A DNA stretch of 28,273 nt from Patescibacteria group bacterium (GCA_035291985.1 DATDRC010000066.1:1-28273), one strand, 5' to 3'; counted from the stretch's first letter, positions 3,068 to 23,907 are shown. Made by a program: numbers and translations. The notes: generated by a model not told the origin, from the letters alone.

Positions 3068-5644
3068 ATGGAGTGGAGAAAGGGTTTGTCAGAAGAAGAA
3101 GCAAGCAAGAGACTTTCGGTCTACGGTCGGAATGAGGTGAGGCTGGATGAAGGGCGGGTTTGGGTCAGAATTCTTTTTGGTCAAGTGAAATCGCCTCTGG
3201 TCTATGTTCTCTTGATTGCCAGTGGGGTTTCTTTGCTTCTTGGCGATGTGATTGATGCCGGAGTAATTTTTTTGGCGGTTCTGATCAACACCGTTTTCGG
3301 CTTTTTCCAGGAGTACCGGGCGGAAAAATCGATGGAGGCCCTCTCCAAACTGTTAACTCCCAGGGCAAGAGTCAAACGGGGCGATGAGTGGGAGGAGGTC
3401 GAGGCGACCCTATTGGTCCCCGGCGATGTGGTGAAACTGACGATTGGTTGGAAAGTGCCGGCGGACGGCCTGTTAATTGTCGAGGAGGATATGTACCTCA
3501 ACGAAGCGATTTTAACCGGGGAAAGTATGCCGGTAGTCAAGAAAACCTGGAAAGCCGAGGAAGGGTTTGAGTTGGGCAACGGCTTCTTTGACGGGATAGC
3601 CGGCGACTATAAAGGGCTTACCGGGACGGTGGTGGAAAAAGGGGTGGGGGAGATGTTGGTGGTGCGAACCGGATCGAGGACAAAGATGGGGGGGATCGCC
3701 AAGGTGGTGCGGGAAAGAGGGATTGGTCGGACGCCGTTGCAGAAGCGGCTTGATCGGTTGACGGGGCAACTGACGCTGGTTGTCTCGGTGGTGGCGGGGG
3801 GGGTCTTTATTTACGGTGTCATGACGGGAAATTCTTTCTTAACTTTTTTGAATACGTCGGTCGCTTTGGCGGTGGCGGCGATACCCGAAGGACTGGTGGT
3901 CGGGCTGACGGTTATTTTGGCGGTGGGGATGAAGCGGATTTTGAAAAGAAAAGCCATTGTCAGGGGACTGATGGCGGCGGAAACGCTGGGGAGTGTGTCA
4001 GTAATTTGTTTGGATAAAACCGGAACGATCACCGAGGGAAAAATGGCGGCGGTGGGGGCGGTGACCGATATAGGTGAAGGGACCGATGAGCAGATTGCGG
4101 ATGAGGGTAAGCATGATGAGGAGACGATGAGGTGGCTGATCGAGGGAGCGTTCTGGTGTAATGACCAGCGCGATCCGTTGGAGATTTCGATGCGGGACTG
4201 GGCGGTGCTCCGGCTGGAAAAAAGGTTAGGTAAGGACGCCATCTCGCGGTTTGTTCGAAAGAGTGAATTGCCTTTTGCTCATGAAACAAAATATATTGCC
4301 ACGAGACATGAAGTAAATAACAAAGTGGTTGATTTTGTCAGTGGGGCACCGGAGATTGTTTTGGAAAGATGTAGTTTTAAAGACGAAAAAATAAGAAAAA
4401 AGTGGGGAGAGAGATTTGTCGAGGTGGGGATTACCGGTTATCGGATGGTGGCAGTAGCGATGAGAAAAAGAGAGGCCGGGTTGGTCGGGAAAAAGATTGA
4501 ACAAACCGATATTGACGGACTGACATGGCTGGGACTGGTGCTCTTTAGCGATCCGCTTCGGGGCGGGGTGGCGGAATCGCTCTCGCGGGCGATGGAAGCG
4601 GGGATCAAGTTAAAGGTAATCACGGGCGATTATAAAGAGACCAGTTGGGCGGCGGTCCGACAGGTAGGGTTGGTGGAAGGCCATGAGGTAAAGCCCGATC
4701 TGGTGATGTTGGGGGAAGACTTTGACAAACTTTCGGGAGAAGAAAAGAAACAGAAAATTTTAAATTCGGTCTTGTTTGCGAGAACGTCGCCGGAGCAGAA
4801 ATACGAGATCGTCGAAACTCTGCAGGCAAACGGGGAGACGGTGGCGATGATGGGTGACGGGGTGAATGATGTTCCGGCCTTGAAAAAAGCCGATATCGGC
4901 ATCGTCGTCGAGGACGCCAGCGATCTGGCCCGTGAGGTGGCCGACCTGATCCTGCTGGACAACAACTTCGACACAATCTTGGCGGCGGTTGAAGAAGGCC
5001 GGGGGATGTTTGATAACTTGCGGAAAGTAATTCTTTTTCTATTATCCGATTCTTTTGCGGCGATAGTGGTGATAGTGGCCTCGATTTATTGGGGATGGCC
5101 CTTGCCGCTACTGGCTTCACAAATCCTGTGGATTAATTTGATCAGCGATGGATTTCCGTATATGGCCCTGACGGTGGAGCCAAAAGAAAAAGACTTGCTG
5201 GCGCGGAAACCAATAGCCCGAAACGCGCCGCTGATGGAGTGGAAAAGGGTCGCTTTGGTGGGAGTGATTTCGGTAACGGCGGGAGGACTGGCCCTGGCGG
5301 TATTTGGGTTCACATTTTTCTATCTTCATAAAGACATTGTCTTTTCGCGGACGATGGCTTTCGCGATGCAGGGGATTTCCTCGCTCGTTTATGTTTTTTC
5401 CAGCCGCTCGCTCTCCCGCCCGATTTGGAAGGATAATCTTTTGAAGAACCCATTTTTGAACTTGGGAGTTTTGGGTGGGTTAGCGCTCCAGGCGACGGCG
5501 ATCTACTGGCCGCCCTTGCAGGGGATATTCAGTACGGTGGCGATTTCGCTTGGCGACTGGCTGTGGTTATTCGGCGGCGGTTTGTTATTGATCGTCGTGG
5601 TTGAGACGATCAAGGCGGCTTACTTTCGAAACGGGTATAGTTAA
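3068..5644 (+). CDS. Cation-transporting P-type ATPase, type IIA (Ca2+-like)
   Basis: TGES, IPEGL, DKTGT phosphorylation site, TGD, MMGDGVNDVPAL, INLISDGFP. Confidence 0.93.
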   Translation: MEWRKGLSEEEASKRLSVYGRNEVRLDEGRVWVRILFGQVKSPLVYVLLIASGVSLLLGDVIDAGVIFLAVLINTVFGFFQEYRAEKSMEALSKLLTPRARVKRGDEWEEVEATLLVPGDVVKLTIGWKVPADGLLIVEEDMYLNEAILTGESMPVVKKTWKAEEGFELGNGFFDGIAGDYKGLTGTVVEKGVGEMLVVRTGSRTKMGGIAKVVRERGIGRTPLQKRLDRLTGQLTLVVSVVAGGVFIYGVMTGNSFLTFLNTSVALAVAAIPEGLVVGLTVILAVGMKRILKRKAIVRGLMAAETLGSVSVICLDKTGTITEGKMAAVGAVTDIGEGTDEQIADEGKHDEETMRWLIEGAFWCNDQRDPLEISMRDWAVLRLEKRLGKDAISRFVRKSELPFAHETKYIATRHEVNNKVVDFVSGAPEIVLERCSFKDEKIRKKWGERFVEVGITGYRMVAVAMRKREAGLVGKKIEQTDIDGLTWLGLVLFSDPLRGGVAESLSRAMEAGIKLKVITGDYKETSWAAVRQVGLVEGHEVKPDLVMLGEDFDKLSGEEKKQKILNSVLFARTSPEQKYEIVETLQANGETVAMMGDGVNDVPALKKADIGIVVEDASDLAREVADLILLDNNFDTILAAVEEGRGMFDNLRKVILFLLSDSFAAIVVIVASIYWGWPLPLLASQILWINLISDGFPYMALTVEPKEKDLLARKPIARNAPLMEWKRVALVGVISVTAGGLALAVFGFTFFYLHKDIVFSRTMAFAMQGISSLVYVFSSRSLSRPIWKDNLLKNPFLNLGVLGGLALQATAIYWPPLQGIFSTVAISLGDWLWLFGGGLLLIVVVETIKAAYFRNGYS

Positions 5645-10645: not shown

Positions 10646-11750
10646 TAGCCTCGACGGTTTTTAACATCAGCCGTAAATTGTGGACACTGGCGAGGGAATA
10701 GTAGAGCAGTTCTTTGGATCGGAATAGGTGGTGGAGATAGGCACGGCTGAAATTTTTGCAGGTAGGACAATCGCAGTTTTCGTCAATGGGGCCGGCGTCG
10801 CCGGCGAATTCTTTATTGCCGATATTGATTCTTTCGTTGGGGTAGTTACTCTCAAAACAATACTCGCCATTTTTGCTTATTACTTTGCCGGTATAAAGGG
10901 CGCCGTTTCGGGCGAGCCGAGTGGGGGCGACGCAATCGAACATATCAATGCCCAGAGAAATGGCAGTGAGGACATCGGAGGGTTTTAGCCCCAGGCCCAT
11001 GGTGTAGCGGGGTTTGTTCTCCGGTAGATAGTCGGCGATCCAGTCGATGACCTGCTGGGTGCCGGACATATTGTAGCCGATGGTTTCACCGCCGATGGCA
11101 ATGCCGGGGAGGTCTTGGGCGACAACAAACTGGGCGGCTTCACGGCGCAGATCTTCGTGAAGCGCACCCTGAATAATGCCGAAGAGAGCTTGTTTTTCGG
11201 TGTCGTGTTTTTGCCATTCTTTGACTCCCCGAACCAGCCAAGTGTTGGTTAATTCGAGGGCAGTCCGGGCCGCGTCTTTTTTAGCGGTGTCGGAAGTACA
11301 CTGGTCAAAAGCCATGATGATATCGGCGCCGAGCTTCACTTCGGAGTCGATGGCGATCTCGGGAGAAAGAAAGTTGACGGTGCCGTCCAGGTGGGAACGA
11401 AATTCGACGCCGTCGGGAGTAATTTTGGCCAGTCCACCCCCTGGCTCACCCAGTGACCAAACCTGGAAACCACCGCTGTCAGTGAGAATTGGTTTGTCCC
11501 AATTCATGAAGGCATGTAGGCCACCGAGCTTGGCAATAACGTCGCTGCCCGGGCGCAAGAAAAGGTGGTAGTTGTTGGCCAGGATGATTTGGGCGCCGAT
11601 CTCCTTAAGTTCTCGAGGATTGACGGACTTGACCGAGGCGTGGGTGCCAACGGGCATGAAAACGGGAGTGGCGAGATCGCCGTGGGGTGTAGAAAAGACG
11701 CCGGTGCGACCGCGGCCGGCCAGTTTGCCGGTGATTTTAAACTCGAACAT
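10614..11750 (-). CDS. tgt: tRNA-guanine transglycosylase
   Basis: TPVFMPVGT, ILTDSGGFQVWSL, GIIQG, DMFDCVAPTRLARNG, Zn site CDCPTC..FSRAYLHH...HNL; start ATG 11750 (MFEFK) with TATAAT 7 nt upstream. Confidence 0.97.
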   Translation of the reverse strand: MFEFKITGKLAGRGRTGVFSTPHGDLATPVFMPVGTHASVKSVNPRELKEIGAQIILANNYHLFLRPGSDVIAKLGGLHAFMNWDKPILTDSGGFQVWSLGEPGGGLAKITPDGVEFRSHLDGTVNFLSPEIAIDSEVKLGADIIMAFDQCTSDTAKKDAARTALELTNTWLVRGVKEWQKHDTEKQALFGIIQGALHEDLRREAAQFVVAQDLPGIAIGGETIGYNMSGTQQVIDWIADYLPENKPRYTMGLGLKPSDVLTAISLGIDMFDCVAPTRLARNGALYTGKVISKNGEYCFESNYPNERINIGNKEFAGDAGPIDENCDCPTCKNFSRAYLHHLFRSKELLYYSLASVHNLRLMLKTVEATKELASRPQS

Positions 11751-11757
11751 GCCTGTT

Positions 11758-11905
11758 ATTATATTGTATTTGTGCCTGGGGAGGGGGATTTTCTGAAGCT
11801 GGCGCCGAGGATGTTTTAGGTTTGAGAAATTTGATGGATTTAGCCTTGAAACAGGCATAAAGTATTGATACGAAGCAATAAAGCTTAATTCTAGCCTGCT
11901 ATAAT
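11758..11905. promoter_or_regulatory. Divergent -10 elements for tgt and the LD-carboxypeptidase
   Basis: Minus-strand TATAAT at 11758-11763, 7 nt from the tgt ATG; plus-strand extended -10 TGCTATAAT at 11897-11905, 7 nt from ATG 11913. Confidence 0.65.
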
Positions 11906-11912
11906 AGGTTTT

Positions 11913-12935
11913 ATGAGTGATTTTGTGAAGCCGGCGGCACTAACTAAAGGAGACGTCATCGGGGTAATCGCCCCATCGGATGCAATCGAGAAAAAATATA
12001 TCAGTCCAAACATCAAACTGGTGGCGGAATGGGGTTTGAAAGCCAAGCTGGGGAAGCATTTGTATTCGATGGTTGGGGATTTTGCGGCCGGGACGCCCGA
12101 AGAAAGACGCGAGGATATTTTGAAGATGATTGAGGATCCGGAAGTGAAAGTGATTTGGGCCGCTGAAGGTGGTTACGCGGCGACAGAGGTGTTACCGGTT
12201 TTTTCCAAAGAGGTGATTCAAAAACTGCGCCAGAATCCAAAATGGTTTATCGGCTACTCTGATGTTTGTATTTTATTAAATGCCCTGATGAGTTTTCGGA
12301 TTGCTTCAATCCAGGGCCCGAACTTTTCCGGAATAATCGATAAAGATCAAAAGAGTCAAGACTGGCTGAGACGGATGCTTTTCGGTGAAACGGGTTTGGA
12401 GATTGGGAGTGAGGCCAATTGGAAAAGTTTTATTTCCGGTCAGGCCGAAGGAAAGTTGTTGGTCTCAAATTTGGATAGTTTGGTGGCAACGCTGGGGACG
12501 CGTTTTGATCCTTTGATGCATGGATCGGGGGATCTGATTCTGGGACTGGAAGAATGGTGGATTGAGAAAAGTACACTCCAACGACAGATTGATATGATCC
12601 TTAATCACAAAAGAGCCAGTCGGATTAAAGGAATTATTTTGGGGAGATTTATCGGTATCGGAGAGTATTCTTATCCCGCTTGGGGTAAAAAAGTAACGGC
12701 AGAATCATTGATTGAAGGTCGGGTTAGATATCGAGGAACGGGAGTTCCCTTGGCCCAGCTGGCCGACTTCGGTCATCCGATGACCCAAAGTTGGTTAGAA
12801 GAAAAAATGCCCAAACTGGCAAAGCCGCAAACATTTTTGGCGCTACCTAATGGTATTAAAGTGAGATTTACGGTTGATTCTTCTTCCGGAAGACTGCAGT
12901 TTTTGGAATCGATAACGGCGGAGAAAGTTTCTTGA
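11913..12935 (+). CDS. LD-carboxypeptidase / MccF-like peptidase (S66 family)
   Basis: GDVIGVIAPS, AGTPEERRED, catalytic IGYSD (Ser), LGLEE (Glu), DFGH (His). Confidence 0.9.
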   Translation: MSDFVKPAALTKGDVIGVIAPSDAIEKKYISPNIKLVAEWGLKAKLGKHLYSMVGDFAAGTPEERREDILKMIEDPEVKVIWAAEGGYAATEVLPVFSKEVIQKLRQNPKWFIGYSDVCILLNALMSFRIASIQGPNFSGIIDKDQKSQDWLRRMLFGETGLEIGSEANWKSFISGQAEGKLLVSNLDSLVATLGTRFDPLMHGSGDLILGLEEWWIEKSTLQRQIDMILNHKRASRIKGIILGRFIGIGEYSYPAWGKKVTAESLIEGRVRYRGTGVPLAQLADFGHPMTQSWLEEKMPKLAKPQTFLALPNGIKVRFTVDSSSGRLQFLESITAEKVS

Positions 12936-13047: not shown

Positions 13048-14061
13048 ATGGACGATAGCGAACGGGGGGACCTGAAAGATAAAAAGATTCTCATCATCTA
13101 TACGGAGATGGACGACTGGAGTGAAGAAGATAAGATAACGTCTGTTTTGTCGACCGATGAGATGATGGCGGAGCTTGTCGCTTTGGGTTTTTCGAAAGTA
13201 TTTAAGAAAAAAGTGACCGAACCGATTGAGGAAGCTTTTATCGAATTCGATCCCGCGGAAACTATTATTTTTAACTGGGCCGAAAGTTGGGGCAGTGATG
13301 GCAGTGACTACTGGACGATTCCGGAACATCTTGAAAAATTGGGGTTTGTCTATACCGGCAGTGACCCCGAGTGTCTAAAGGAAACGATCGATAAAGTGGC
13401 GACAAAAAGGAAAATGTTAGCCAGGGGCATTTCCACTCCCTTGACGAAAATCTATGAAAGCAACGAGCCAAACGGTTGGAATATTTTTCCGGCGATTGTG
13501 AAACCGGCAAGAGAACACTGTTCGACTGGAGTAACTCGAGAGGCGGTAGTTGATAACCAAGAACAATTACACGCCCGGATCGCTTACAATCTTAGCGAGT
13601 ACGGGCCTCATGGGATTATCGTCGAGGACTTTATTGAGGGGAATGAGTATAACGTGACGGTTTGGGGAAATGAAAAACCCGAAGTCCTGCCGATCGGGAT
13701 GATCGATTTCTCGGGGTTTGATGACTACCATGATCGGATCTGTTCGTTTGATGCCAAATGGAGTGAGGGTTCGAAGGAGTGGAATAATACGCCGGTAATC
13801 TGTCCGGCACCGGTTGATGATGAGTTGAAAAAGCGACTCGAAGATTTGGCCCTGTCCACCTACAAACTTTTTGGGATTCGGGACTACGCCCGAATTGATA
13901 TGAGGGTGAGGGACGGGATTCCCTACGTTCTCGACGTTAACTCCAATCCGGACATAACCACTTCCGGCGGTTTGGTTAGATCCATACGCAAGGCGGGCTA
14001 CTCGTATGGCGAAGGCGTGGCGAAGATTCTGGCGATGGCTCTTTCCCGGATGCCGAAGTGA
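13048..14061 (+). CDS. D-Ala-D-Ala ligase-like ATP-grasp enzyme
   Basis: IFNWAE, YTGSDP, DKVATK, PAIVKPAREHCSTGV, EDFIEGNEYNV, RDYARIDMR, VLDVNSNPD. Confidence 0.85.
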   Translation: MDDSERGDLKDKKILIIYTEMDDWSEEDKITSVLSTDEMMAELVALGFSKVFKKKVTEPIEEAFIEFDPAETIIFNWAESWGSDGSDYWTIPEHLEKLGFVYTGSDPECLKETIDKVATKRKMLARGISTPLTKIYESNEPNGWNIFPAIVKPAREHCSTGVTREAVVDNQEQLHARIAYNLSEYGPHGIIVEDFIEGNEYNVTVWGNEKPEVLPIGMIDFSGFDDYHDRICSFDAKWSEGSKEWNNTPVICPAPVDDELKKRLEDLALSTYKLFGIRDYARIDMRVRDGIPYVLDVNSNPDITTSGGLVRSIRKAGYSYGEGVAKILAMALSRMPK

Positions 14062-16199: not shown

Positions 16200-17260
16200 T
16201 GGCTGAAGCAAGAAACGTTATTGTTATCGGGGGGGCGTCGGCTGGTTATACGGCGGCAATCTACCTGGCCCGGGCAACGCTGTCGCCTTTGGTCTTGGCT
16301 GGGGAAAATGCCGGGGGGCAACTGATGTTTACAACGGAAGTAGAGAATTTTCCCGGTTTTTCGAAGGGGATTAGGGGACCTGATTTGATGATGGAAATGA
16401 GGGCACAAGCGGAGCGGTTTGGAGCAGAAATACAAAACGCGAACGTGACAAAAATAGATTTTTCAGGGGGGGTAAAAAGGGTTTGGGTTGGTGAAACAGA
16501 ATATCAGGCGAAGGCGGTCATTTTGGCCCTGGGGGCAATGAGCCGGATGCTTAAAGTCGGTGAAGAGAATTTTTTGGGGCGGGGGGTGTCGACCTGCGCG
16601 GTCTGCGATGCCGCCTTTTTTAAGGATAAAACGGTTTTTGTTGTCGGCGGCGGTGACGCGGCCATGGAAGATGTTTTGGCGCTGGCCCGATTTACCGATA
16701 AGGTAACCGTGATTTATCGAAAGGGTGAATTTAAGGCGAGCAAGATTATGCAGGCAAGGGTTGGAGAAAAAAACATTCCGGTCCTGTGGGAGACAGAGGT
16801 AACGGGAGTTATGGGCGAGAATAAACTAGAGAAAATCAGGATCAAGGATAAAGCCGGCGAGAAGGAGTTGTCGGCTGATGGGTTGTTTTTGGCGATCGGC
16901 CATATCCCGGCGACGGACATTCTTAAGGGTCAGGTGGAGTTGGACAGTCATGACTACTTGATAACAAAGATGACCGCACCAACAGCTTTGTCCGCCAGCA
17001 ACGCTGAGAGCGTAGCTCCTGCGGGCTGGCAGTCAGGCGGGCAGGCCTCGCCGCAAGCTGTGCAAGCAGGCGGGCAGGCCATGAGTAATCAAGAAATTTG
17101 GCTAAATGATTACCCGACCCAGACATCGGTAGCCGGTGTTTTTGGCGCGGGCGATATGGTCGATATCCGTTACCGCCAAGCGATTACGGCGGCAGGGATG
17201 GGCTGTATGGCGGCGCTCGACGCCGAAAAATTTCTGACGGGGACAATTCAAGGCTGGTAG
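16199..17260 (+). CDS. trxB: Thioredoxin reductase with a low-complexity insertion
   Basis: GGASAGYTAA, GGQLMFTTEVENFPGF, CAVCD, VVGGGDAA, TSVAGVFGAGD, YRQAITAAGMG. Confidence 0.95.
   Translation: MAEARNVIVIGGASAGYTAAIYLARATLSPLVLAGENAGGQLMFTTEVENFPGFSKGIRGPDLMMEMRAQAERFGAEIQNANVTKIDFSGGVKRVWVGETEYQAKAVILALGAMSRMLKVGEENFLGRGVSTCAVCDAAFFKDKTVFVVGGGDAAMEDVLALARFTDKVTVIYRKGEFKASKIMQARVGEKNIPVLWETEVTGVMGENKLEKIRIKDKAGEKELSADGLFLAIGHIPATDILKGQVELDSHDYLITKMTAPTALSASNAESVAPAGWQSGGQASPQAVQAGGQAMSNQEIWLNDYPTQTSVAGVFGAGDMVDIRYRQAITAAGMGCMAALDAEKFLTGTIQGW
16990..17080. repeat. GC-rich palindromic (REP-like) element(s) in frame inside trxB
   Basis: Hairpin GTCCGC..AGC-A-ACGCT-GAG-AGCGT-A-GCT..GCGGGC (16990-17026); 14-bp direct repeat CAGGCGGGCAGGCC at 17034-17047 and 17067-17080. 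Confidence 0.65.
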
Positions 17261-17276
17261 TGGTAGGATAGAGTTG

Positions 17277-17465
17277 ATGGTTTCGGAAAGAATACGAAAT
17301 TTAATCTTGGGAGATCAGTTGACGAGAGACGAAAGAGAAATCCTTGAGGAATGGTTGGCTGATTGCGACGAGGATGAGTATGAAGAATATCTCAGATTGA
17401 AGAGTGACGGGGTGGAGGTTCGAGTCGATGACGAAAGTGAATTAGAGCCTGACGATGAAATGTAA
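17277..17465 (+). CDS. Small, very acidic hypothetical protein
   Basis: 62 aa, 24 Asp/Glu by hand count; extended -10 TGGTAGGAT (17261-17269) 7 nt before ATG 17277. Confidence 0.65.
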   Translation: MVSERIRNLILGDQLTRDEREILEEWLADCDEDEYEEYLRLKSDGVEVRVDDESELEPDDEM

Positions 17466-17479
17466 TAGAATTAGGAGAA

Positions 17480-19231
17480 ATGAAACCAGCAGACAAAATT
17501 AGACAAGCGATTGAGGGGGTAGTTGGGAAGAATATCGATTTTGTGGTGGAGCATCCGGCGGATGAGAGTCATGGGGATTACGCAACCAATGTGGCGATGA
17601 TGATGGAGGGTAATCCGCGAGAGTTGGCGCAGGGGCTGGCGGAGAAGTTAAAAAAGAGCGCTGTTTTGGGTGGGGTGGTGGATCTCCCCCGAATCGAGGT
17701 GGCTGGCCCGGGATTCATCAATTTTTGGTTAAAAGAGGACTGGTTGCTTTCAGAAGCTGGTGAGGTAACCCAACTAAGTGATGAATATGGGAAAGGAAAC
17801 TGGGGAAAGGGACAGATTTATGAAGTTGAACATACCTCGCCAAATCCGAATAAGGCGATGCATTTGGGGCACCTTCGAAACAACGTAACGGGGATGGCGG
17901 TGGCTAATTTGTTTGAAGCGGGTGGAGTGAAAGTAATTCGGGATGCGGTTGATAACAACAGAGGGATCGCGATAGCAAAGTTGATGTGGGGATTCCTAAA
18001 GTTTGCCAAAAAAGATGGGAAAGAAACCGAAGATGTTGATTATTGGCATCTTCATCAGGATGAATGGCAAACTCCAGAAGATAAGGGGATGCGACCAGAT
18101 AGGTTTGTGGACGAGTTGTATGTCAAGGGAGCGGAAGATTCTAAGAATAAGCCGGTAGAGGAAAAGGTCAGAAAGTTGGTAGTCGATTGGGAGGCGGAAA
18201 ATAAGACGACTTGGGCTCTTTGGAGAAATGTTCTGGACTACTCGTATGAGGGGCAAGCAATGACTTTGGCGAGATTGGGTAACCGCTGGGATAAAGTTTG
18301 GCATGAGCACGAACACTATAAAGAGGGTAAAGCATGGGTCGATAAGGGGATCAAAAAGAAAATTTTCAAAGTTCTACCTGACGGGGCGGTATTAACTGAC
18401 TTATCAAAATTCGGTTTGACGGACACAATTGTAATTAAGTCTGATGGAACGGCTCTTTATATTACTCAGGATCTAGCGTTGACTTCGTTGAAAAAAAAGA
18501 CATACAAAGCTGATCGGTTGTTTTGGGTGATTGGTCCGGAGCAATCATTAGACCTGAAACAAATGTTCGCGGTCTGTGAACAGTTGGGGATTGGAAAAGT
18601 TAGCGATTTCTCCCATATCCCTTATGGATATATGTCGATCAAGGGACAGGGGAAGATGAGTAGTCGGACGGGAAACGTAGTTTATATTGACCAGCTCTTG
18701 GACTCGGCCAAAGATGAAATCAGTAAGGTAATTAAAGAGAGGGGCTTTACAAAGAAAGAGGAAGAATCGGTTTCGGAAAAGCTTGGTGTGGGTAGTGTTA
18801 AGTATTCTATTTTGAAAGTCGGAAGAATGACGGATATGGCTTTTGACCTGGCAAGCTCAATTTCTTTTGAGGGGGATTCCGGGCCTTACTTGAATTATGT
18901 TTATGTCAGAACCAAAGGAGTGGCGAGAAAAGCTAACGACGATAAAGCGGAAGTGATAATAGATGAGTTATCAGACACTGAAAAATCAATTCTAAGGTGG
19001 ATTGCCAGATTTTCTGAAGTAGTTGAGTCAGCCGGAAAAGATTTGGCTCCAAATTTAGTGTGCTCCTACTTATTTGAACTGTCACAGAAATATAATTCTT
19101 TTTATAGTAAAAACCCGATCGCGGGTGGAGGAAGATATAAGGGTAGAAGATTAACGATAAACAATGCAGTGGGACAAATAATCAAAACAGGGTTGAAACT
19201 TTTGGGAATTGAGGTGGTGGAAAAGATGTAG
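17480..19231 (+). CDS. argS: Arginine--tRNA ligase
   Basis: HGDYATN, AGPGFINF, EHTSPNPNKAMHLGH, KSDGTALY, GKMSSRTG, FEGDSGPYLNYVYVR; SD AGGAG upstream. Confidence 0.97.
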   Translation: MKPADKIRQAIEGVVGKNIDFVVEHPADESHGDYATNVAMMMEGNPRELAQGLAEKLKKSAVLGGVVDLPRIEVAGPGFINFWLKEDWLLSEAGEVTQLSDEYGKGNWGKGQIYEVEHTSPNPNKAMHLGHLRNNVTGMAVANLFEAGGVKVIRDAVDNNRGIAIAKLMWGFLKFAKKDGKETEDVDYWHLHQDEWQTPEDKGMRPDRFVDELYVKGAEDSKNKPVEEKVRKLVVDWEAENKTTWALWRNVLDYSYEGQAMTLARLGNRWDKVWHEHEHYKEGKAWVDKGIKKKIFKVLPDGAVLTDLSKFGLTDTIVIKSDGTALYITQDLALTSLKKKTYKADRLFWVIGPEQSLDLKQMFAVCEQLGIGKVSDFSHIPYGYMSIKGQGKMSSRTGNVVYIDQLLDSAKDEISKVIKERGFTKKEEESVSEKLGVGSVKYSILKVGRMTDMAFDLASSISFEGDSGPYLNYVYVRTKGVARKANDDKAEVIIDELSDTEKSILRWIARFSEVVESAGKDLAPNLVCSYLFELSQKYNSFYSKNPIAGGGRYKGRRLTINNAVGQIIKTGLKLLGIEVVEKM

Positions 19232-19244
19232 GAGCGGTTTTGAT

Positions 19245-19273
19245 TTGACAACTGCTGATTTTTAAATTAGTAT
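19245..19273 (+). promoter_or_regulatory. sigma70 promoter of the T-box leader
   Basis: TTGACA (19245-19250)-N17-TAGTAT (19268-19273). Confidence 0.7.
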
Positions 19274-19290
19274 TGGGGAAATTGTATAAA

Positions 19291-19442
19291 GGCGTTTGAG
19301 GGGAGTCGCGATCTCCGAGCCTCTTGGAGAAATACAAGACGGGTAAGCCCGAAATAGCAGGAATAAGTTCATTAGGGGTGGTACCGACTTAAAGAGTCCC
19401 CCGTCTGTTTTGATATTTTCGAAATAGACGGGGGATTTTTTT
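19291..19442 (+). ncRNA. T-box riboswitch (ultrashort Stem I, transcriptional; probable Arg specifier)
   Basis: T-box GGGGTGGTACCG (19375-19386); antiterminator GGGG-TGGTACC-GAC-TTAAAGA-GTC-CCC; mutually exclusive terminator; Stem I GGC..GA..GA-GCC (19291-19321) with CGC at 19307-19309; TCTTG/CAAGA stem; CGGG-TAAG-CCCG stem IIA. Confidence 0.88.
19397..19442 (+). terminator. Intrinsic terminator of the T-box leader
   Basis: TCCCCCGTCTGTTT / GAAATAGACGGGGGA stem followed by T7; the 5' arm overlaps the antiterminator 3' strand. Confidence 0.9.
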
Positions 19443-19462
19443 GTTATTAAATACATATAGAA

Positions 19463-20749
19463 ATGAGCGAGACTCTGAAAAAAAGTGAGGTGAAAAAGTG
19501 GGGATATCGACAACCGGTTATTTTAGTGGAGTCGCAGTCGGCGCCGATTTTGTTTGGAGATCCGGCGGAGCAGGCTTATATGCGAGGTTGTAACACAACC
19601 ACGAAAGGTGATTTGGTGGTGACTGATTTTCCACTTAATCGGCTATATGTTGAGGGATATTTGAGGGACATATTGGGTTTTGATTTACCTGATTACCTAG
19701 TGATCGAACAAACAGGAGCGGGCTGTCTTTCTGAGAACTTACTTGATCCGACAAATCAAGATTGTTTGAAGAAAATGGAACAATATTGGTTGTTAAAGGG
19801 CCGACAACCGAAGCTTCAGTTTTTTAACGTGACAGAGCATGAATTGTCTTTGGTGAGAGCTTTGGGTATCGAGTCGACTTGTGGCAATCCGGAGATGGCG
19901 ATCAAGGTTGGATCCAAGCCGGGGTTCAGAAGGCTGTGTGAAGGGTTGGGAATCCCAATGCCGAGAGGGGTTATTTGTCACAGTCTTACGGAAACGATCG
20001 TTGCAGTTTCTGCGTTATTGACTGAAGGGAAAGGGGCGATGATAAAAACAGAAAATGGTACTGGAGGGACAGACTTGAAAAGCAATGTAGTGATAGGAAA
20101 AGTGGATGAGGTTACGAGAAAACTGGCCGATTTTGACGGATTTTTGGGTGGCGAGTGGGTGGTAGAGGAAAAAGTTGATGGAGAAGATGGTTCGATTCAC
20201 GTTTTTGTTCAAGACGGTCAAATGGCCGAAAAGTCATTTGTTTTAGGGGCAATTTCTGCAGACAACTCTTATGTTGGGGGATACTTCCCCTTTGAGCCAA
20301 GTGACGAACAAATTGGAATGATGAAAATGGTTGACGATATCTTGGTGCCGGCACTGCAAGAGCTTGGCGTGTTTGGGCACCACTGTTTTGATTTTAAGGG
20401 GGGGTACTTTTTGGAAGATAACGTCCGACCGGGAGCGCTGGATTTCATTCACGGAATGGTGGTCCGAATCGCGGAAAAACATTTCGAGGGGAAATCTTAC
20501 GCATACTGGCACTACCATGTGGCAACAAGCGGACCGACTAATTTCGAACGAGTTTACGAGACACTTTCTGAATATCTCGATCCCAAAAACGCTAAAGATG
20601 GTTGTGTGGCGATGGTAAGTAACCAGGAGGTGTTGCCTTTTGGAAGATCGCTTGACTTAACTGCAATTAACTTTGGTGATGATGCGTCGGTGGAGAAAGC
20701 GAAGGAATTCTTTACTGAGCTAGAGATATTAGCAAAAGAGAAACTTTGA
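19463..20749 (+). CDS. ATP-grasp ligase resembling the PGM1 peptide-ligase family (pre-ATP-grasp plus ATP-grasp)
   Basis: LQFFNVTEHELSLVRALG, GNPEMAIKVGSKPGFRRLCEGLGIPMPRG, MIKTENGTGG, WVVEEKV, FLEDNVRPG (E-x-N-x-R). Confidence 0.7.
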   Translation: MSETLKKSEVKKWGYRQPVILVESQSAPILFGDPAEQAYMRGCNTTTKGDLVVTDFPLNRLYVEGYLRDILGFDLPDYLVIEQTGAGCLSENLLDPTNQDCLKKMEQYWLLKGRQPKLQFFNVTEHELSLVRALGIESTCGNPEMAIKVGSKPGFRRLCEGLGIPMPRGVICHSLTETIVAVSALLTEGKGAMIKTENGTGGTDLKSNVVIGKVDEVTRKLADFDGFLGGEWVVEEKVDGEDGSIHVFVQDGQMAEKSFVLGAISADNSYVGGYFPFEPSDEQIGMMKMVDDILVPALQELGVFGHHCFDFKGGYFLEDNVRPGALDFIHGMVVRIAEKHFEGKSYAYWHYHVATSGPTNFERVYETLSEYLDPKNAKDGCVAMVSNQEVLPFGRSLDLTAINFGDDASVEKAKEFFTELEILAKEKL

Positions 20750-20750
20750 T

Positions 20751-21890
20751 ATGGATGGCCTAACCTTGTTAAAACAATTAATTGCAATTAGATCTTACAG
20801 CGGTGAGGAAAAGAAATTGGCAATGTTTATTGCCGGTTGGTTTCGGAAGAGGAAAATAAAAGCAAATTTCCAAAGAGATAATCTGATCGTCTTTTTGCCC
20901 GGAAATAATTCCAAGAAAGCTTTTATCTTTAATTCGCATATGGATACGGTTTCGGCTGGTGACCGCTCGCTCTGGAAATTCGATCCCCTGGTGCCGACGA
21001 TGGTCAAAAATAAATTGGTGGGGTTGGGAGCCAGTGACATGAAGTCGGGGTTGGCGGCGGCAATGTTAACTTGTGAAGCATTTTCAAAGGCGAAACCGGA
21101 GGTTGATTTGTGGTTTACCTACGTAGTTAGAGAAGAGCAAGATGGTTCGGGGACGAATAACTTTGCCAAATGGTTTCAAGAGAGGGGCTATCACAAAAAA
21201 TATGAACAGATTGGGGCCATATTTACGGAACCGACGGGATTGTCTGAAGTGGAACACGGACACCGGGGAAACTTGTTTTTGGTCGCGACAGCGACCGGAG
21301 ATTCGGGACATGCGAGCAGACCAGGGGACATAAAAATCCATGCAGTGAAAAAAATGCTAGAGTTTGCACATGTGTTAGAAGAAGAAATGAAAAGATGGCA
21401 GAAAGAATACAAAAGCGAAATATTCGATCCGCCGACGGTCGGCGTTTTCACCTCAATAGAGGCGGGAGTAAGGGGGTGTGGTGAAATAGTCGTGGTGGAG
21501 TCGGTGAACAAATTCCCATCGAGTTGCCGGGCGACTTTTGACGTGCGATCTGTCCCCGGTTTTCACGAAGAGGCATTTTCAAAGATTGCAAGTTTGGGAA
21601 AGAAGCAAGGTGTTAAGGTGGAATTGCTCTTTCCGGCGGCGCCGTCTGGTTTTACAAAAGCAGATGACAAACTAATCACGGTGATAAAGAAGACAGTGGG
21701 TAAGGTGAAATTGACAGTCAGCCAGGGTTCTGCCGATATGGGTTTTCTTTCCGAACTGGGAGTGAAGGCGATTATTTTTGGACCTGGTGAGAAACAACAG
21801 TGTCACGTGGTGAATGAATACTGCTATCCGGATCAGGTGGAGAAAGCGGCTGGGATTTATCAAAAAGTCGTTTCGGATTGGGCCGTGTGA
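20751..21890 (+). CDS. M20 family metallohydrolase (ArgE/DapE-like)
   Basis: NSHMDTV, GLGASDMKSG, VREEQDG, FTEPT, GHAS, FDVR, ADMGF, FGPG, CHVVNE; all metal ligands present. Confidence 0.92.
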   Translation: MDGLTLLKQLIAIRSYSGEEKKLAMFIAGWFRKRKIKANFQRDNLIVFLPGNNSKKAFIFNSHMDTVSAGDRSLWKFDPLVPTMVKNKLVGLGASDMKSGLAAAMLTCEAFSKAKPEVDLWFTYVVREEQDGSGTNNFAKWFQERGYHKKYEQIGAIFTEPTGLSEVEHGHRGNLFLVATATGDSGHASRPGDIKIHAVKKMLEFAHVLEEEMKRWQKEYKSEIFDPPTVGVFTSIEAGVRGCGEIVVVESVNKFPSSCRATFDVRSVPGFHEEAFSKIASLGKKQGVKVELLFPAAPSGFTKADDKLITVIKKTVGKVKLTVSQGSADMGFLSELGVKAIIFGPGEKQQCHVVNEYCYPDQVEKAAGIYQKVVSDWAV

Positions 21891-21902
21891 TATCCTTGGC
21901 CC

Positions 21903-22595
21903 ATGAAAAAGGAGTGGTGGGCACATCGGTCCGTGGATAGTAGTGGTAGGGTTGTAGAGGTTCTTGTCGGAACGCATCAGGTAGCGTTGGTGATAGAGTT
22001 TGACAGCAATGGAGAAATAATGTCAGGACTGTATCGACCGGAAAAAGGACTATTGGTGAGTGTAGATCCGAGGGTTCCGAAGCCGCAGGAATTGTATCGG
22101 GATGTGGCTTATTACCGTTTTTGTGACTTTTTGGGTTGGCAGGGGGTGGCCCCCGTCTTTCCTTGGCAACTTGAGCCGGGAGATAAGGGTGTAATTCGGC
22201 CATATTGGAAAGTGATAAAAAACATGGAGATTTATCATTTTGGTAAAAAGAAACTGGATGGTGGTGACCGCTTGTTCTGGAGGCGACTGGCTCTGGCCGA
22301 TTATATTTTTGGGGTTGGCGACAGGGTCAGCAATGATTTTCTGATTACCCAAGATGGTACCCAAGTGGTGGATAGCGGTTTTTCTTTCCTGCCAGAACTA
22401 AACTTTCCTTATCAACAATCGATTATTCGCGACCTGTATAGGGGCGATAGCGTTGATGATTCACTGCTTACTGACTTGGAGCGACTACGGCAAGACTTTG
22501 ATCCAAATTATGTTGATGGCTTGATCGGAGAGATTGAGTTGTACTGGGTTTGGGAACGGGTGCGAAGGATTCGGTCTGAGAAGACGTTTTGTTGA
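21903..22595 (+). CDS. Atypical kinase-fold protein resembling SCO1664 / PI3-PI4-kinase-like family
   Basis: LYRPEKG, RDVAYY..DFLGW..VAP, RRLALADYIFGVGDR, VVDSGFSF, EIE..WERVRRI match the remembered SCO1664 pattern (YKP..G, REVAAY..LGW..VP, RR.A.FD...NADR, VDHG..F). Confidence 0.6.
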   Translation: MKKEWWAHRSVDSSGRVVEVLVGTHQVALVIEFDSNGEIMSGLYRPEKGLLVSVDPRVPKPQELYRDVAYYRFCDFLGWQGVAPVFPWQLEPGDKGVIRPYWKVIKNMEIYHFGKKKLDGGDRLFWRRLALADYIFGVGDRVSNDFLITQDGTQVVDSGFSFLPELNFPYQQSIIRDLYRGDSVDDSLLTDLERLRQDFDPNYVDGLIGEIELYWVWERVRRIRSEKTFC

Positions 22596-22625
22596 CTTGA
22601 TATTTCGTGTTATATTTGTTGTAGG

Positions 22626-22682
22626 ATGCAAGTGCGTCGGCGTAGAACAATTAGCAATGATTTAACGGAATACCCGCTCTAA
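22626..22682 (+). CDS. Arginine-rich attenuator leader peptide MQVRRRRTISNDLTEYPL
   Basis: ATG CAA GTG CGT CGG CGT AGA ... CCG CTC TAA; extended -10 TGTTATATT (22608-22616) upstream; stop codon lies in the terminator loop; below the ORF-track size cutoff. Confidence 0.75.
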   Translation: MQVRRRRTISNDLTEYPL

Positions 22683-22695
22683 TGGCGGGTTTTTT
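22672..22695 (+). terminator. Intrinsic terminator / attenuator upstream of the deiminase-like gene
   Basis: ACCCGC-TCTAATG-GCGGGT-TTTTT, ending 3 nt before ATG 22699. Confidence 0.85.
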
Positions 22696-22698
22696 GTT

Positions 22699-23907
22699 AT
22701 GAGCAGACAAAATCCGGAAAGAAGAGAGGCCTTAGGAAGGAATGAGGTGGGTATAAATGAAGAAGTGGATTGGTTGGCGACGACTTTATCTTGGGGTCCG
22801 ACCGGGGTAGAAGCAGTTTTGGCAACTTTGATTCCGGAAAAGCACAGTTTGTTTTTCGACAAGATGGACGTGCTGTTGGCAAGAAGGCAGTACGAGGCCT
22901 TTCATGACACGCTTGAAAGAAGAGGTTGTTGTGTAATCAGGGTGAGAGACTTGGCAACGGAGGCGTTATTAAGAAGAGGTGGAGTGATGCCAGCCAAAAG
23001 TTTGGCGGAACTGAGGGGGAGAATTATTGCAAAGGCTGACACTCTTGTTCATAAGTATGGAAGAGGTATGAGAGAGGTGGGTGATTGTATCGCGGAGGTC
23101 CTGGTCGAAGACGCGGCCCTTTACGGAGAAGAGGGGGCGATTAGGTTGAATGCGATTCTGGCCCAAGTGGATACCGATTTTCTGCCGATGGCGAACCTAT
23201 TATTTGGACGGGATCAAAGCAACGTGGTGGGCGACATCTTGCTTTGGTCAAACATGATGCATGAAATTCGCCGTCCAGAAGTAGATTTGTGGATGATAGC
23301 GACGGAATCATTACTGGCTAATATCAAAACGACGGTGGTAACCGGTTTGGGCAGACTGGAAGGTGGAGATACGATTGTCCATAGGGGCAACTGCTTTGTG
23401 GGAGTTGGTGGCAGATCGAATCTAGCCGGTGTTGAGCAAATTGCACCGTCAGTTTTGGGTGCCGGCTTCAGGATGTTTGCGGTTTATCATCCCGAGAGAG
23501 ACGCGGGTTTGCGTGAGCACCAAACAACCATGCATTTGGACACTTTCTATATGCCCGGTCCAAAAAATACCGCAGTTGTATTAATGGAAGAGGCTCACGA
23601 AAGAACATTGCTGGAAGTAGTGGAAAACTCTAATGGAGTGAGATTGGAACCGAGAGGTACTTTTGCCGATTATCTGCTGGAGTCAGGAGCGGACATCATT
23701 CCTTTGACCCGAGAACAACAACTGAACTACCAGGCAAACTATGTGGTGTTGGATGAGAAAAGCGTCATGTTGACCATCTACGGCGATGGCTATCTGAAGG
23801 GGGAATTTGAGAAGCGGGGGGTGGAGGTCGTGGACGGCGATTTGAGCGCCATCACCAATGGATACGGTGGAGCCCACTGCTCTTTGACGCCCATACTTCG
23901 AATTTAG
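22699..23907 (+). CDS. Arginine deiminase-like protein (amidinotransferase superfamily)
   Basis: LFFDKMD..ARRQYEAFHDTL, PMANLLFGRD, RLEGGD, MHLDT, GYGGAHC (catalytic Asp/His/Cys); 402 aa. Confidence 0.85.
   Translation: MSRQNPERREALGRNEVGINEEVDWLATTLSWGPTGVEAVLATLIPEKHSLFFDKMDVLLARRQYEAFHDTLERRGCCVIRVRDLATEALLRRGGVMPAKSLAELRGRIIAKADTLVHKYGRGMREVGDCIAEVLVEDAALYGEEGAIRLNAILAQVDTDFLPMANLLFGRDQSNVVGDILLWSNMMHEIRRPEVDLWMIATESLLANIKTTVVTGLGRLEGGDTIVHRGNCFVGVGGRSNLAGVEQIAPSVLGAGFRMFAVYHPERDAGLREHQTTMHLDTFYMPGPKNTAVVLMEEAHERTLLEVVENSNGVRLEPRGTFADYLLESGADIIPLTREQQLNYQANYVVLDEKSVMLTIYGDGYLKGEFEKRGVEVVDGDLSAITNGYGGAHCSLTPILRI

Follow-up and report, generated by a model that had tools for sequence, protein, structure and literature searches.

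What do four enzyme genes do beside an arginyl-tRNA synthetase gene, and how are they controlled, in a bacterium of the Candidate Phyla Radiation (CPR, Patescibacteria), a group in which amino-acid biosynthesis is thought to be missing and regulation sparse? This question is raised by a stretch of 28,273 nucleotides from a Patescibacteria group bacterium (GCA_035291985.1 DATDRC010000066.1:1-28273), called as a whole the window here. The genes are organised in the order argS, a predicted ATP-grasp ligase, an M20 hydrolase, a kinase-like protein and a hydrolase of the arginine deiminase (ADI) family, followed by tyrS and further aminoacyl-tRNA synthetase (aaRS) genes. A preliminary description of positions 17480-23907 had proposed that two RNA sensors would turn on the ligase and the M20 hydrolase at low arginine and the deiminase at high arginine, and all the elements that it named were found in place within these positions. 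The best-supported explanation is a two-branch, RNA-controlled arginine module of opposite polarity, which we regard as probable.

The source genome is a 752 kb, 94%-complete CPR genome, with Candidatus Collierbacteria as nearest named relatives. In almost complete form, the locus was recovered from about 20 DNA runs of groundwater and soil, therefore an assembly artefact is excluded.

T-box leader upstream of the ligase gene

A terminator-type T-box leader with an ultrashort Stem I was found upstream of the ligase gene at 19286..19446 (plus strand) by Rfam comparison, folding and covariation. It is preceded by a promoter-like TTGACA-17-TAGTAT (19245..19273, plus strand; 10/12 matches in a consensus scan). 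Stem I (19291-19321) has a kink-turn (K-turn)-like base, a 5-bp helix and the 7-nt terminal loop GUCGCGA (19305-19311), which carries the specifier CGC (19307-19309). The leader also possesses a short Stem II (19322-19339), a CGGG-UAAG-CCCG hairpin, and the core GGGUGGUACCG with its UGGU bulge (19375-19386), downstream of which lies a terminator of 20 bp with a U-run (19393-19439). The 3′ side of the core, which is kept in 12 leaders, overlaps the 5′ arm of the terminator. The fold z-score of the leader is -4.35.

Conservation of the paired structure was evident in the 12 aligned 5′ domains, where 93.5% of cells are paired, compared to 27-53% with slid partners. Changes on both sides were found in 9 of 13 pairs, and none of 500 shuffles equalled the observed covariation. 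Stem I and Stem II both covary, and the loop GUCGCGA, with covarying helices on either side, is invariant. Homologous T-boxes precede the ligase gene in G002, the sister species of the window organism, and in loci L007, L008 and L055-L058; in L065 the T-box lies farther upstream of the ligase. T-boxes with the same loop were also found before other genes (L010, L049, L050, L054).

Two registers are possible for the loop, CGC (Arg) and GCG (Ala). In the short Stem I loops of relatives, such as SerRS (CU-UCC-AA), GlyRS (CUUU-GGC-AA), IleRS (UC-AUC-A) and TrpRS (..UGG-G), the codon is followed by one or two purines, so the geometry is compatible with both registers. The gene context discriminates between them. 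The identical loop directly precedes argH-argG in L049 and L050 (G389, G333), two genomes of another family, and therefore the specifier is assigned as CGC (Arg). The Ala register, which structure alone would admit, is rejected on this context. The same loop precedes the cluster ligase-M20-argH-argG-kinase-like-ADI-argS in L008. All tRNA-Arg genes found have A73, matching UGGU, as do the tRNA-Ala genes, hence the discriminator base is uninformative.

Similar to RF00230 members of the glyQS/tyrS type and the actinobacterial ileS type, the leader has a K-turn in Stem I, a matching specifier read by the anticodon, Stem II and IIA/B, and a UGGN bulge pairing with the tRNA 3′ end, in a core that competes with the terminator, antiterminator and terminator being mutually exclusive. 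Unlike known T-boxes, it joins a 7-nt specifier loop and an intrinsic terminator with no platform, and it is predicted to be Arg-specific and to control a non-aaRS operon in CPR bacteria. According to a review (PMC7583486), an ultrashort Stem I is characteristic of translational T-boxes of actinobacteria, and the platform is held essential in transcriptional T-boxes; a terminator-type, platform-less T-box is therefore an unusual combination. Among these CPR genomes such a design seems to be frequent, and relatives share the short form for Ser, Ile, Gly and Trp. Literature searches on T-boxes in CPR/Patescibacteria returned nothing within the searched library.

Further T-boxes were observed in the relatives. 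Very short Stem I elements with the specifier in or near the terminal loop are present in L038, L039, L040, L043 and L044, where they precede trpS, serS, ileS and glyS, and most of them score below the Rfam gathering score. L010 harbours a second Arg-type T-box (13161-13328) before an open reading frame (ORF) cut by the contig end. L010 also encodes a PEP-utilisers domain protein and two unannotated proteins flanking an M20 gene (11532-12651). In L054 (1481-3018) the same Arg-type T-box precedes a 273-aa protein without family match and an alpha/beta-hydrolase-like ORF with a GKSLG motif, which may be further members of an arginine regulon. A T-box was also found before a PPDK_N-like ORF in L034. 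The only other T-box core in the source genome (G000), GGUGGCACC with a terminator, is located at the contig edge (C18, ~50-330).

Leader of the deiminase gene

The second leader lies between the kinase-like gene and the deiminase gene. It consists of an ORF of 18 codons (22626..22682, plus strand) with a run of four Arg codons representing three kinds (22635-22646), overlapping an intrinsic terminator ACCCGC/GCGGGU with a U-run (22672..22696, plus strand; hairpin 22672-22690), in whose loop the stop codon TAA (22680-22682) is located. A -10-like TATATT (22611..22616, plus strand), read from the sequence, lies 9 nt before the leader ATG and is found at the same spacing in G002; it is a possible promoter of a near-leaderless transcript. 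Near-consensus promoters occupy the equivalent place in L061, L062 and L008, the one in L008 being TTGACT-16-TATAAT.

An Arg-rich ORF with a terminator precedes the deiminase gene in at least seven loci. The run of four Arg is retained in G002 through synonymous changes and three Arg codons are present in L056 and L057, with the stop in the loop throughout. Distant loci have unrelated leader sequences with 6-8 Arg in 17-20 residues (L061, L062, L064) or 3 in 16 (L007), each followed by a CCCGC/GCGGG-type terminator and the deiminase gene. Of the 6377 short ATG ORFs of the genome, only 2 have both an RRRR run and a terminator at the stop codon; the second, on contig C1, lies inside a long ORF of the opposite strand, and is attributed to chance. 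Both RNA elements that had been taken to point to arginine are conserved and do point to it, and for the T-box the identical loop before argH-argG settles the Arg reading.

Natural variants of the deiminase leader were observed as well. In L055 (3976-4060) the frame stays open across the entire terminator, and a deletion in L058 (6518-6545) leaves an ORF of 8 codons, still ending in the loop.

Folding under a ribosome mask gave P(terminator) of 0.93-1.0 in 7/7 deiminase leaders with a stall at any Arg codon, and none of the seven formed an alternative antiterminator under any stall mask. With the stop codon in the A site, P(terminator) was 0.00 in the window, G002, L056 and L007, 0.50 in L061 and 0.36 in L062. 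In the simplest reading of these models, a ribosome that completes the ORF would block termination, and arginine sufficiency would turn the deiminase on.

The leader shares with the trp, his and pheA attenuators a short ORF rich in the sensed codons followed by an intrinsic terminator. Unlike these, it has no 2:3 antiterminator, and its predicted output is inverted, with read-through at amino-acid sufficiency. In pyrBI, ribosome-polymerase coupling brings a close ribosome into the hairpin and prevents termination; by analogy, a closely trailing ribosome entering the hairpin would block termination here. To our knowledge, and within a limited literature search, no amino-acid attenuator in which sufficiency leads to read-through has been described. 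The speF leader orf34 also senses arginine, via two Arg codons, but differs in acting by Rho, unfolding of the ribosome-binding site and RNase G (PMC6386406).

Arginine leaders before the ligase in lineages without the T-box

In lineages lacking the T-box, other Arg leaders precede the ligase gene. Type A leaders (L059-L064) encode a peptide ending in L-R-R-R-[V/I]-stop, and their CCUCUCAC pairs with either the upstream GUGGGAGG or the downstream GGGAGG followed by a U-run. When the 5′ RNA behind the ribosome was also held, a stall at RRR gave P(terminator) of 0.05-0.66, and a ribosome at the stop gave 0.92-0.99. The 2:3 antiterminator formed in the nascent RNA in all four leaders modelled. 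The model predicts that type A leaders are on at low arginine.

Type B leaders (L014, L017, L018, L068, L069) encode a conserved peptide that contains RR and ends in MR-stop; a terminator follows, and the leaders are located before ligase-argS. Switching of type B was not reproduced by modelling. An RRR leader also precedes the operon in L071, which belongs to the sister clade. We infer that Arg-responsive control of the ligase arose in several forms.

In each of L061, L062 and L064 the ligase is preceded by a leader of classical type, and the deiminase by one that overlaps its terminator. The best argument for opposite polarity is this coexistence of Arg leaders of different architecture within a single locus.

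A ligase leader with a T-box and terminator was also observed in L015 (Dojkabacteria, 5010-5500). The T-box is followed by a second short ORF, with RR inside and RR-stop at its end, and its own terminator, which may represent tandem control.

Enzymes encoded by the module

The ligase (P0001; 19463..20749, plus strand) has 428 aa and no Pfam match above threshold, and was assigned as a PGM1/BesA-type ATP-grasp amide ligase by fold and profile search. Its AlphaFold2 (AF2) model has a predicted local distance difference test (pLDDT) score of 89.8, and the best Foldseek matches are 8ynd, 3wvq/3wvr (PGM1) and 8yi6 (BesA), with template-modelling (TM) scores of 0.69-0.74. The family profile recovered these structures in the PDB by sequence as well (E 2e-6). 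PF18604 reaches a sub-threshold 16.5 bits in the window ligase and passes its threshold in homologs. The family is small, with 30 representatives at E<=1e-30 among 1.84 billion in an exhaustive profile search. At a sequence identity of only 16-18%, the ligase shares its fold, pre-ATP-grasp domain included, with BesA and with PGM1, the pheganomycin peptide ligase (TM ~0.7). By analogy, the shared chemistry would be formation of an acyl phosphate and then of an amide bond. Unlike PGM1 and BesA, the window ligase occurs in a context of primary metabolism, beside argS and Arg sensors in minimal genomes. The arginine synthetase ArcE, considered as a relative of the ligase, is a P-loop NTPase (PMC11032458) and was rejected as unrelated.

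The M20 hydrolase (P0004; 20751..21890, plus strand), which starts 1 nt past the ligase stop, is a predicted N-alpha deacylase of the ArgE/DapE family. PF01546 and PF07687 pass their thresholds, TIGR01910 falls slightly short (191.6 bits, cut-off 217.6), and the nearest solved structures are DapE and ArgE.

The small kinase-like protein (P0002; 21903..22595, plus strand) has 230 aa and no Pfam match, and was assigned to the SCO1664 / PI3-PI4K type by fold and motifs. The fold of its AF2 model (pLDDT 84.8) is protein-kinase-like and minimal, with PI4K-II, CtkA and Fam20 as the nearest folds and TM 0.82-0.84 to Atlas models of the SCO1664 family. The GDRxxND and DSG motifs are invariant, and the protein has the fold, the catalytic loop D-R-x-x-x-N and the D-x-G of the SCO1664 type. 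TIGR03843 reaches only 23.6 bits (cut-off 172.4), and the protein is therefore not an equivalog. The kinase-like gene is present in some ligase loci and missing from others.

The only PF02274 gene in the source genome encodes a divergent hydrolase of the ADI family (P0003; 22699..23907, plus strand; 85 bits). Its alignment spans the full length of the arcA models, with scores far below the cut-offs (TIGR01078/NF002381, 67.2 bits against 489.1 and 71.5 bits against 414). Relative to Pseudomonas ADI, no catalytic or arginine-binding motif has been lost (NLLFGRD, GVGGRS, MHLDT and GGAHC are all kept), and the same holds for the counterparts of the protein in six other loci. The protein thus shares with ArcA the catalytic Cys, His and Asp and the arginine-binding residues. 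Unlike in the ADI pathway, no arcB, arcC or arcD was found in the source genome, and the predicted control is by a leader peptide instead of ArgR or ArcR. In L010 (2719-5966) the citrulline hydrolase gene ctlX (348 bits, cut-off 334) directly precedes the ADI-like gene, which fits a catabolic role from arginine via citrulline to ornithine. A gene with a weak TiaS_TCKD match lies upstream of this pair.

Gene neighbourhoods and the sister clade

The preliminary description had treated the four genes as a module. Consistent with this, they co-occur in many lineages, and the ligase and M20 genes are adjacent in 12/12 loci whose contig reaches far enough. The arrangement ligase-M20-(kinase-like)-ADI-argS recurs at 47-54% ligase identity. 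The argS gene itself (17480..19231, plus strand; PF00750, PF05746, PF03485) adjoins ligase homologs in nearly all loci, and this link holds down to 27-35% identity. Homologs at 32-35% identity are located directly before argS amid unrelated envelope genes, in genomes where neither a PF02274 gene nor argG was found. A natural ligase-ADI fusion, P0074, is among the 30 family representatives, and in L008 the ADI gene is in the same cluster as argG and argH. In L008 a relA/spoT-family gene directly follows argS (17076-17311).

The sister clade, with ligases of ~410 aa, possesses argS-(pyridoxal-phosphate (PLP) enzyme)-ligase-MR_MLE-M20 clusters, once with a GNAT gene. A ligase together with an MR_MLE epimerase and an M20 hydrolase suggests an N-acyl or dipeptidyl-arginine intermediate. 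Geobacillus kaustophilus converts D- to L-amino acids irreversibly by a GNAT N-succinyltransferase, an N-succinylamino-acid racemase and an M20 L-desuccinylase. The sister clade shares MR_MLE, M20 and once GNAT with this route, and by analogy its logic would be acylation, epimerisation and stereospecific hydrolysis. It differs in that the ATP-grasp ligase replaces or supplements GNAT, and the window's clade and genome differ in having no MR_MLE member except enolase.

Similar arrangements were observed for other amino acids. In G002 (L006 1681-6442, minus strand) a T-box for Tyr (UAC) precedes a 348-aa protein without Pfam match, an M20 gene and tyrS. The 348-aa protein resembles a double GNAT in its Atlas features and belongs to a family found behind T-boxes in six other relatives; kinship with the ligase was rejected (hhalign probability 0.1%). 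In L007 (13803-16861) the order is hisS, M20, GNAT. An N-acylating enzyme and an M20 hydrolase beside the cognate aaRS gene may be a general CPR design.

Absence of canonical arginine pathways

No canonical arg or arc partners had been noted in the window, and this extends to the genome. In the 94%-complete source genome no argG, argH, ornithine carbamoyltransferase (OTC; OTCace_N), AA_kinase (carbamate kinase), ArgR C-domain or APC permease was found. The proposal of control with no protein regulator agrees with the absence of ArgR, and the search for arcB, arcC and arginine transporters came back empty in the form of OTC, AA_kinase and APC permease.

The LysW/AmCP carrier pathway was rejected, as the searches found neither a carrier protein nor an AA_kinase, a reductase or an aminotransferase. 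The LysW/ArgW systems (LysX/ArgX ... LysK) are analogous in having an ATP-grasp first step and an M20 last step around a protected amino group, and differ in that the window ligase is PGM1-like and not RimK/LysX-like. The only small acidic ORF, a very acidic one of 62 aa, is located between trxB and argS (17277-17465); it has 55% identity to an ORF at the same place in G002 and no match in other loci. With neither a zinc ribbon nor an EDWGE tail, it was discarded as a LysW-type carrier. Conversion of D- to L-arginine was likewise rejected for the source genome, whose sole MR_MLE_C match is enolase (SHRSGDTDE motif) and in which no homologs of the MR_MLE or PLP enzymes of the sister clade were found.

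Proposed model and alternative explanations

From these elements, their conservation and the protein folds and motifs, we infer the polarity of both switches and all the substrates of the model. In the first branch, the terminator-type T-box would read tRNA-Arg via the CGC specifier in its ultrashort Stem I loop, and uncharged tRNA-Arg would stabilise the antiterminator, so that low arginine charging would lead to synthesis of the ligase, the M20 hydrolase and the small kinase. In the second branch, the deiminase would use its own start region and the leader ORF ending in the terminator loop. With ample Arg-tRNA the ribosome would follow the polymerase into the hairpin and block it, allowing read-through. 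With scarce Arg-tRNA it would stall ~26 nt upstream, the hairpin would form and transcription would stop. The same hairpin would also end read-through from the first branch. As to the chemistry, we put forward with low confidence that the ligase would acylate or aminoacylate arginine, or a related amino acid, at its alpha-amino group, that partner enzymes (the epimerase in the sister clade, the deiminase here and in the fusion) may work on the protected intermediate, and that the M20 hydrolase would strip the added moiety and free L-arginine for ArgRS. This proposal is made because the ligase fold and the partner sets point to alpha-amino amide formation followed by M20 release.

Taken jointly, these elements could represent a new ATP-dependent route to L-arginine via an N-alpha-acyl or dipeptidyl intermediate, with an epimerase (e.g. 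D-Arg to L-Arg) in the sister clade and coupling to the deiminase here. The route would have been wired to arginine limitation at least three times, through the T-box and at least two types of leader peptide, and the deiminase leader would be a new 'inverse' attenuator acting by ribosome occupancy of the terminator. We offer this extended reading tentatively, as a serious possibility that we would not yet rely on.

Several observations weigh against the two-branch module or its extension. The local RF00230 match (19286-19405) has only 23.3 bits (E 0.0035) for a gathering score of 93, the distal tRNA-elbow platform is absent as Stem I ends in the specifier loop, and the locus is absent from all the RNA runs listed in the RNA run search. 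The assembly has no tRNA-Arg with anticodon ACG or GCG, only UCG, CCG and CCU, and tRNA-Ala(CGC) would match the alternative GCG register. The promoter spacing of the deiminase leader is non-canonical. In L064 the leader ORF ends 13 nt upstream of the hairpin, and in the model a ribosome positioned at its stop leaves the terminator unaffected (P 0.96). For type A and type B leaders, equilibrium folding with the 28-nt ribosome mask alone gave no switch. The source genome has no epimerase, therefore the D-to-L chemistry of the sister clade is not directly transferable. Finally, the P0074 fusion and the layout of L008 may mean that ligase and deiminase act in one pathway and not as antagonistic arms.

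The last point is at the centre of the first alternative, a single arginine-starvation regulon. The deiminase leader would then be classical, with a stall leading to read-through, all genes would be on at low arginine, and ligase and ADI-like enzyme would belong to one supply pathway, in which the latter hydrolyses either a guanidino precursor or the N-acyl-arginine that the ligase makes. The ligase-ADI fusion, the ADI gene clustered with argG and argH behind one T-box in L008, and the geometry of L064 speak for it. However, an antiterminator was found in 0/7 leaders and a stall keeps the terminator formed, the two differently built Arg leaders of L061, L062 and L064 are hard to explain with the same polarity, the deiminase retains the motifs for binding free arginine, and the L008 deiminase gene has its own promoter, so that we consider this regulon unlikely. 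The two-way polarity of the preliminary description therefore stands in so far as it fits the leader geometry, the ribosome-mask modelling and the paired, different leaders, and is called into question by the fusion and L008. It is further qualified by the ligase-argS link, which persists in genomes without any deiminase. The genes could also serve in detoxification or proofreading of arginine look-alikes, such as D-arginine or canavanine-type compounds. Lowered charging would trigger the sensors, the ligase would N-acylate, the M20 hydrolase would return only L-arginine, and the kinase would modify a further compound. Detoxification by N-acylation and T-box-controlled, analogue-resistant TyrRS are both established, an N-acylating enzyme and M20 recur next to the aaRS genes of other amino acids, with a sensor for that amino acid (Tyr in G002, His in L007), and the sister clade adds a gene of the MR_MLE epimerase/racemase family and GNAT. 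This explanation is nevertheless improbable in our judgement, as there is no direct sign of any analogue, the source genome has no racemase or epimerase, and the oppositely wired deiminase is left unexplained.

An amidino- or arginine-containing peptide natural product would combine the PGM1-like ligase with an amidinotransferase-type enzyme, and the M20 hydrolase would act in maturation or self-protection. PGM1-family ligases use guanidino acids and are found beside amidinotransferases in pheganomycin- and ketomemicin-type clusters, PF02274 also spans amidinotransferases, and P0074 is a fusion of ligase and ADI. In contrast, four forms of Arg-starvation sensor precede the ligase, the tight link is to argS even in genomes without a PF02274 gene, and the genomes are minimal (0.75-1.3 Mb). 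The hydrolase is ADI-like and not amidinotransferase-like in architecture and binding residues, and no precursor peptide or export gene is present nearby. We hold such a product to be very unlikely. The view that the RNA elements are relics or chance, and the genes constitutive neighbours in an aaRS cluster, is already disfavoured and has the smallest probability of all. It draws on the missing locus in the listed RNA runs and on the Rfam scores, since neither the search at the gathering threshold nor the whole-window E-value search returned a match in the window and homologous leaders score 33-48 bits, below the gathering score. In the Rfam alignment, 75 Stem I model positions are replaced by 7 nt. 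Against the view stand the T-box covariation, conservation across lineages with synonymous changes of Arg codons, the leader ORF that is unique genome-wide, and the same T-box loop before argH-argG.

Implications for arginine supply in CPR bacteria

The locus is predicted to be a dense, protein-free control circuit for a single amino acid in a CPR bacterium. A transcriptional T-box without the tRNA-elbow platform would bear on the question of fast tRNA capture, and a leader-peptide attenuator of inverted logic would suit a catabolic gene. The uncharacterised ligase and M20 family, whose link to ArgRS and arginine starvation is kept over deep divergence, gives a handle on arginine supply in ultra-small symbionts. 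The locus would point to an undescribed way of supplying arginine to arginyl-tRNA synthetase, and the similar Tyr and His modules suggest that the principle may apply more widely.

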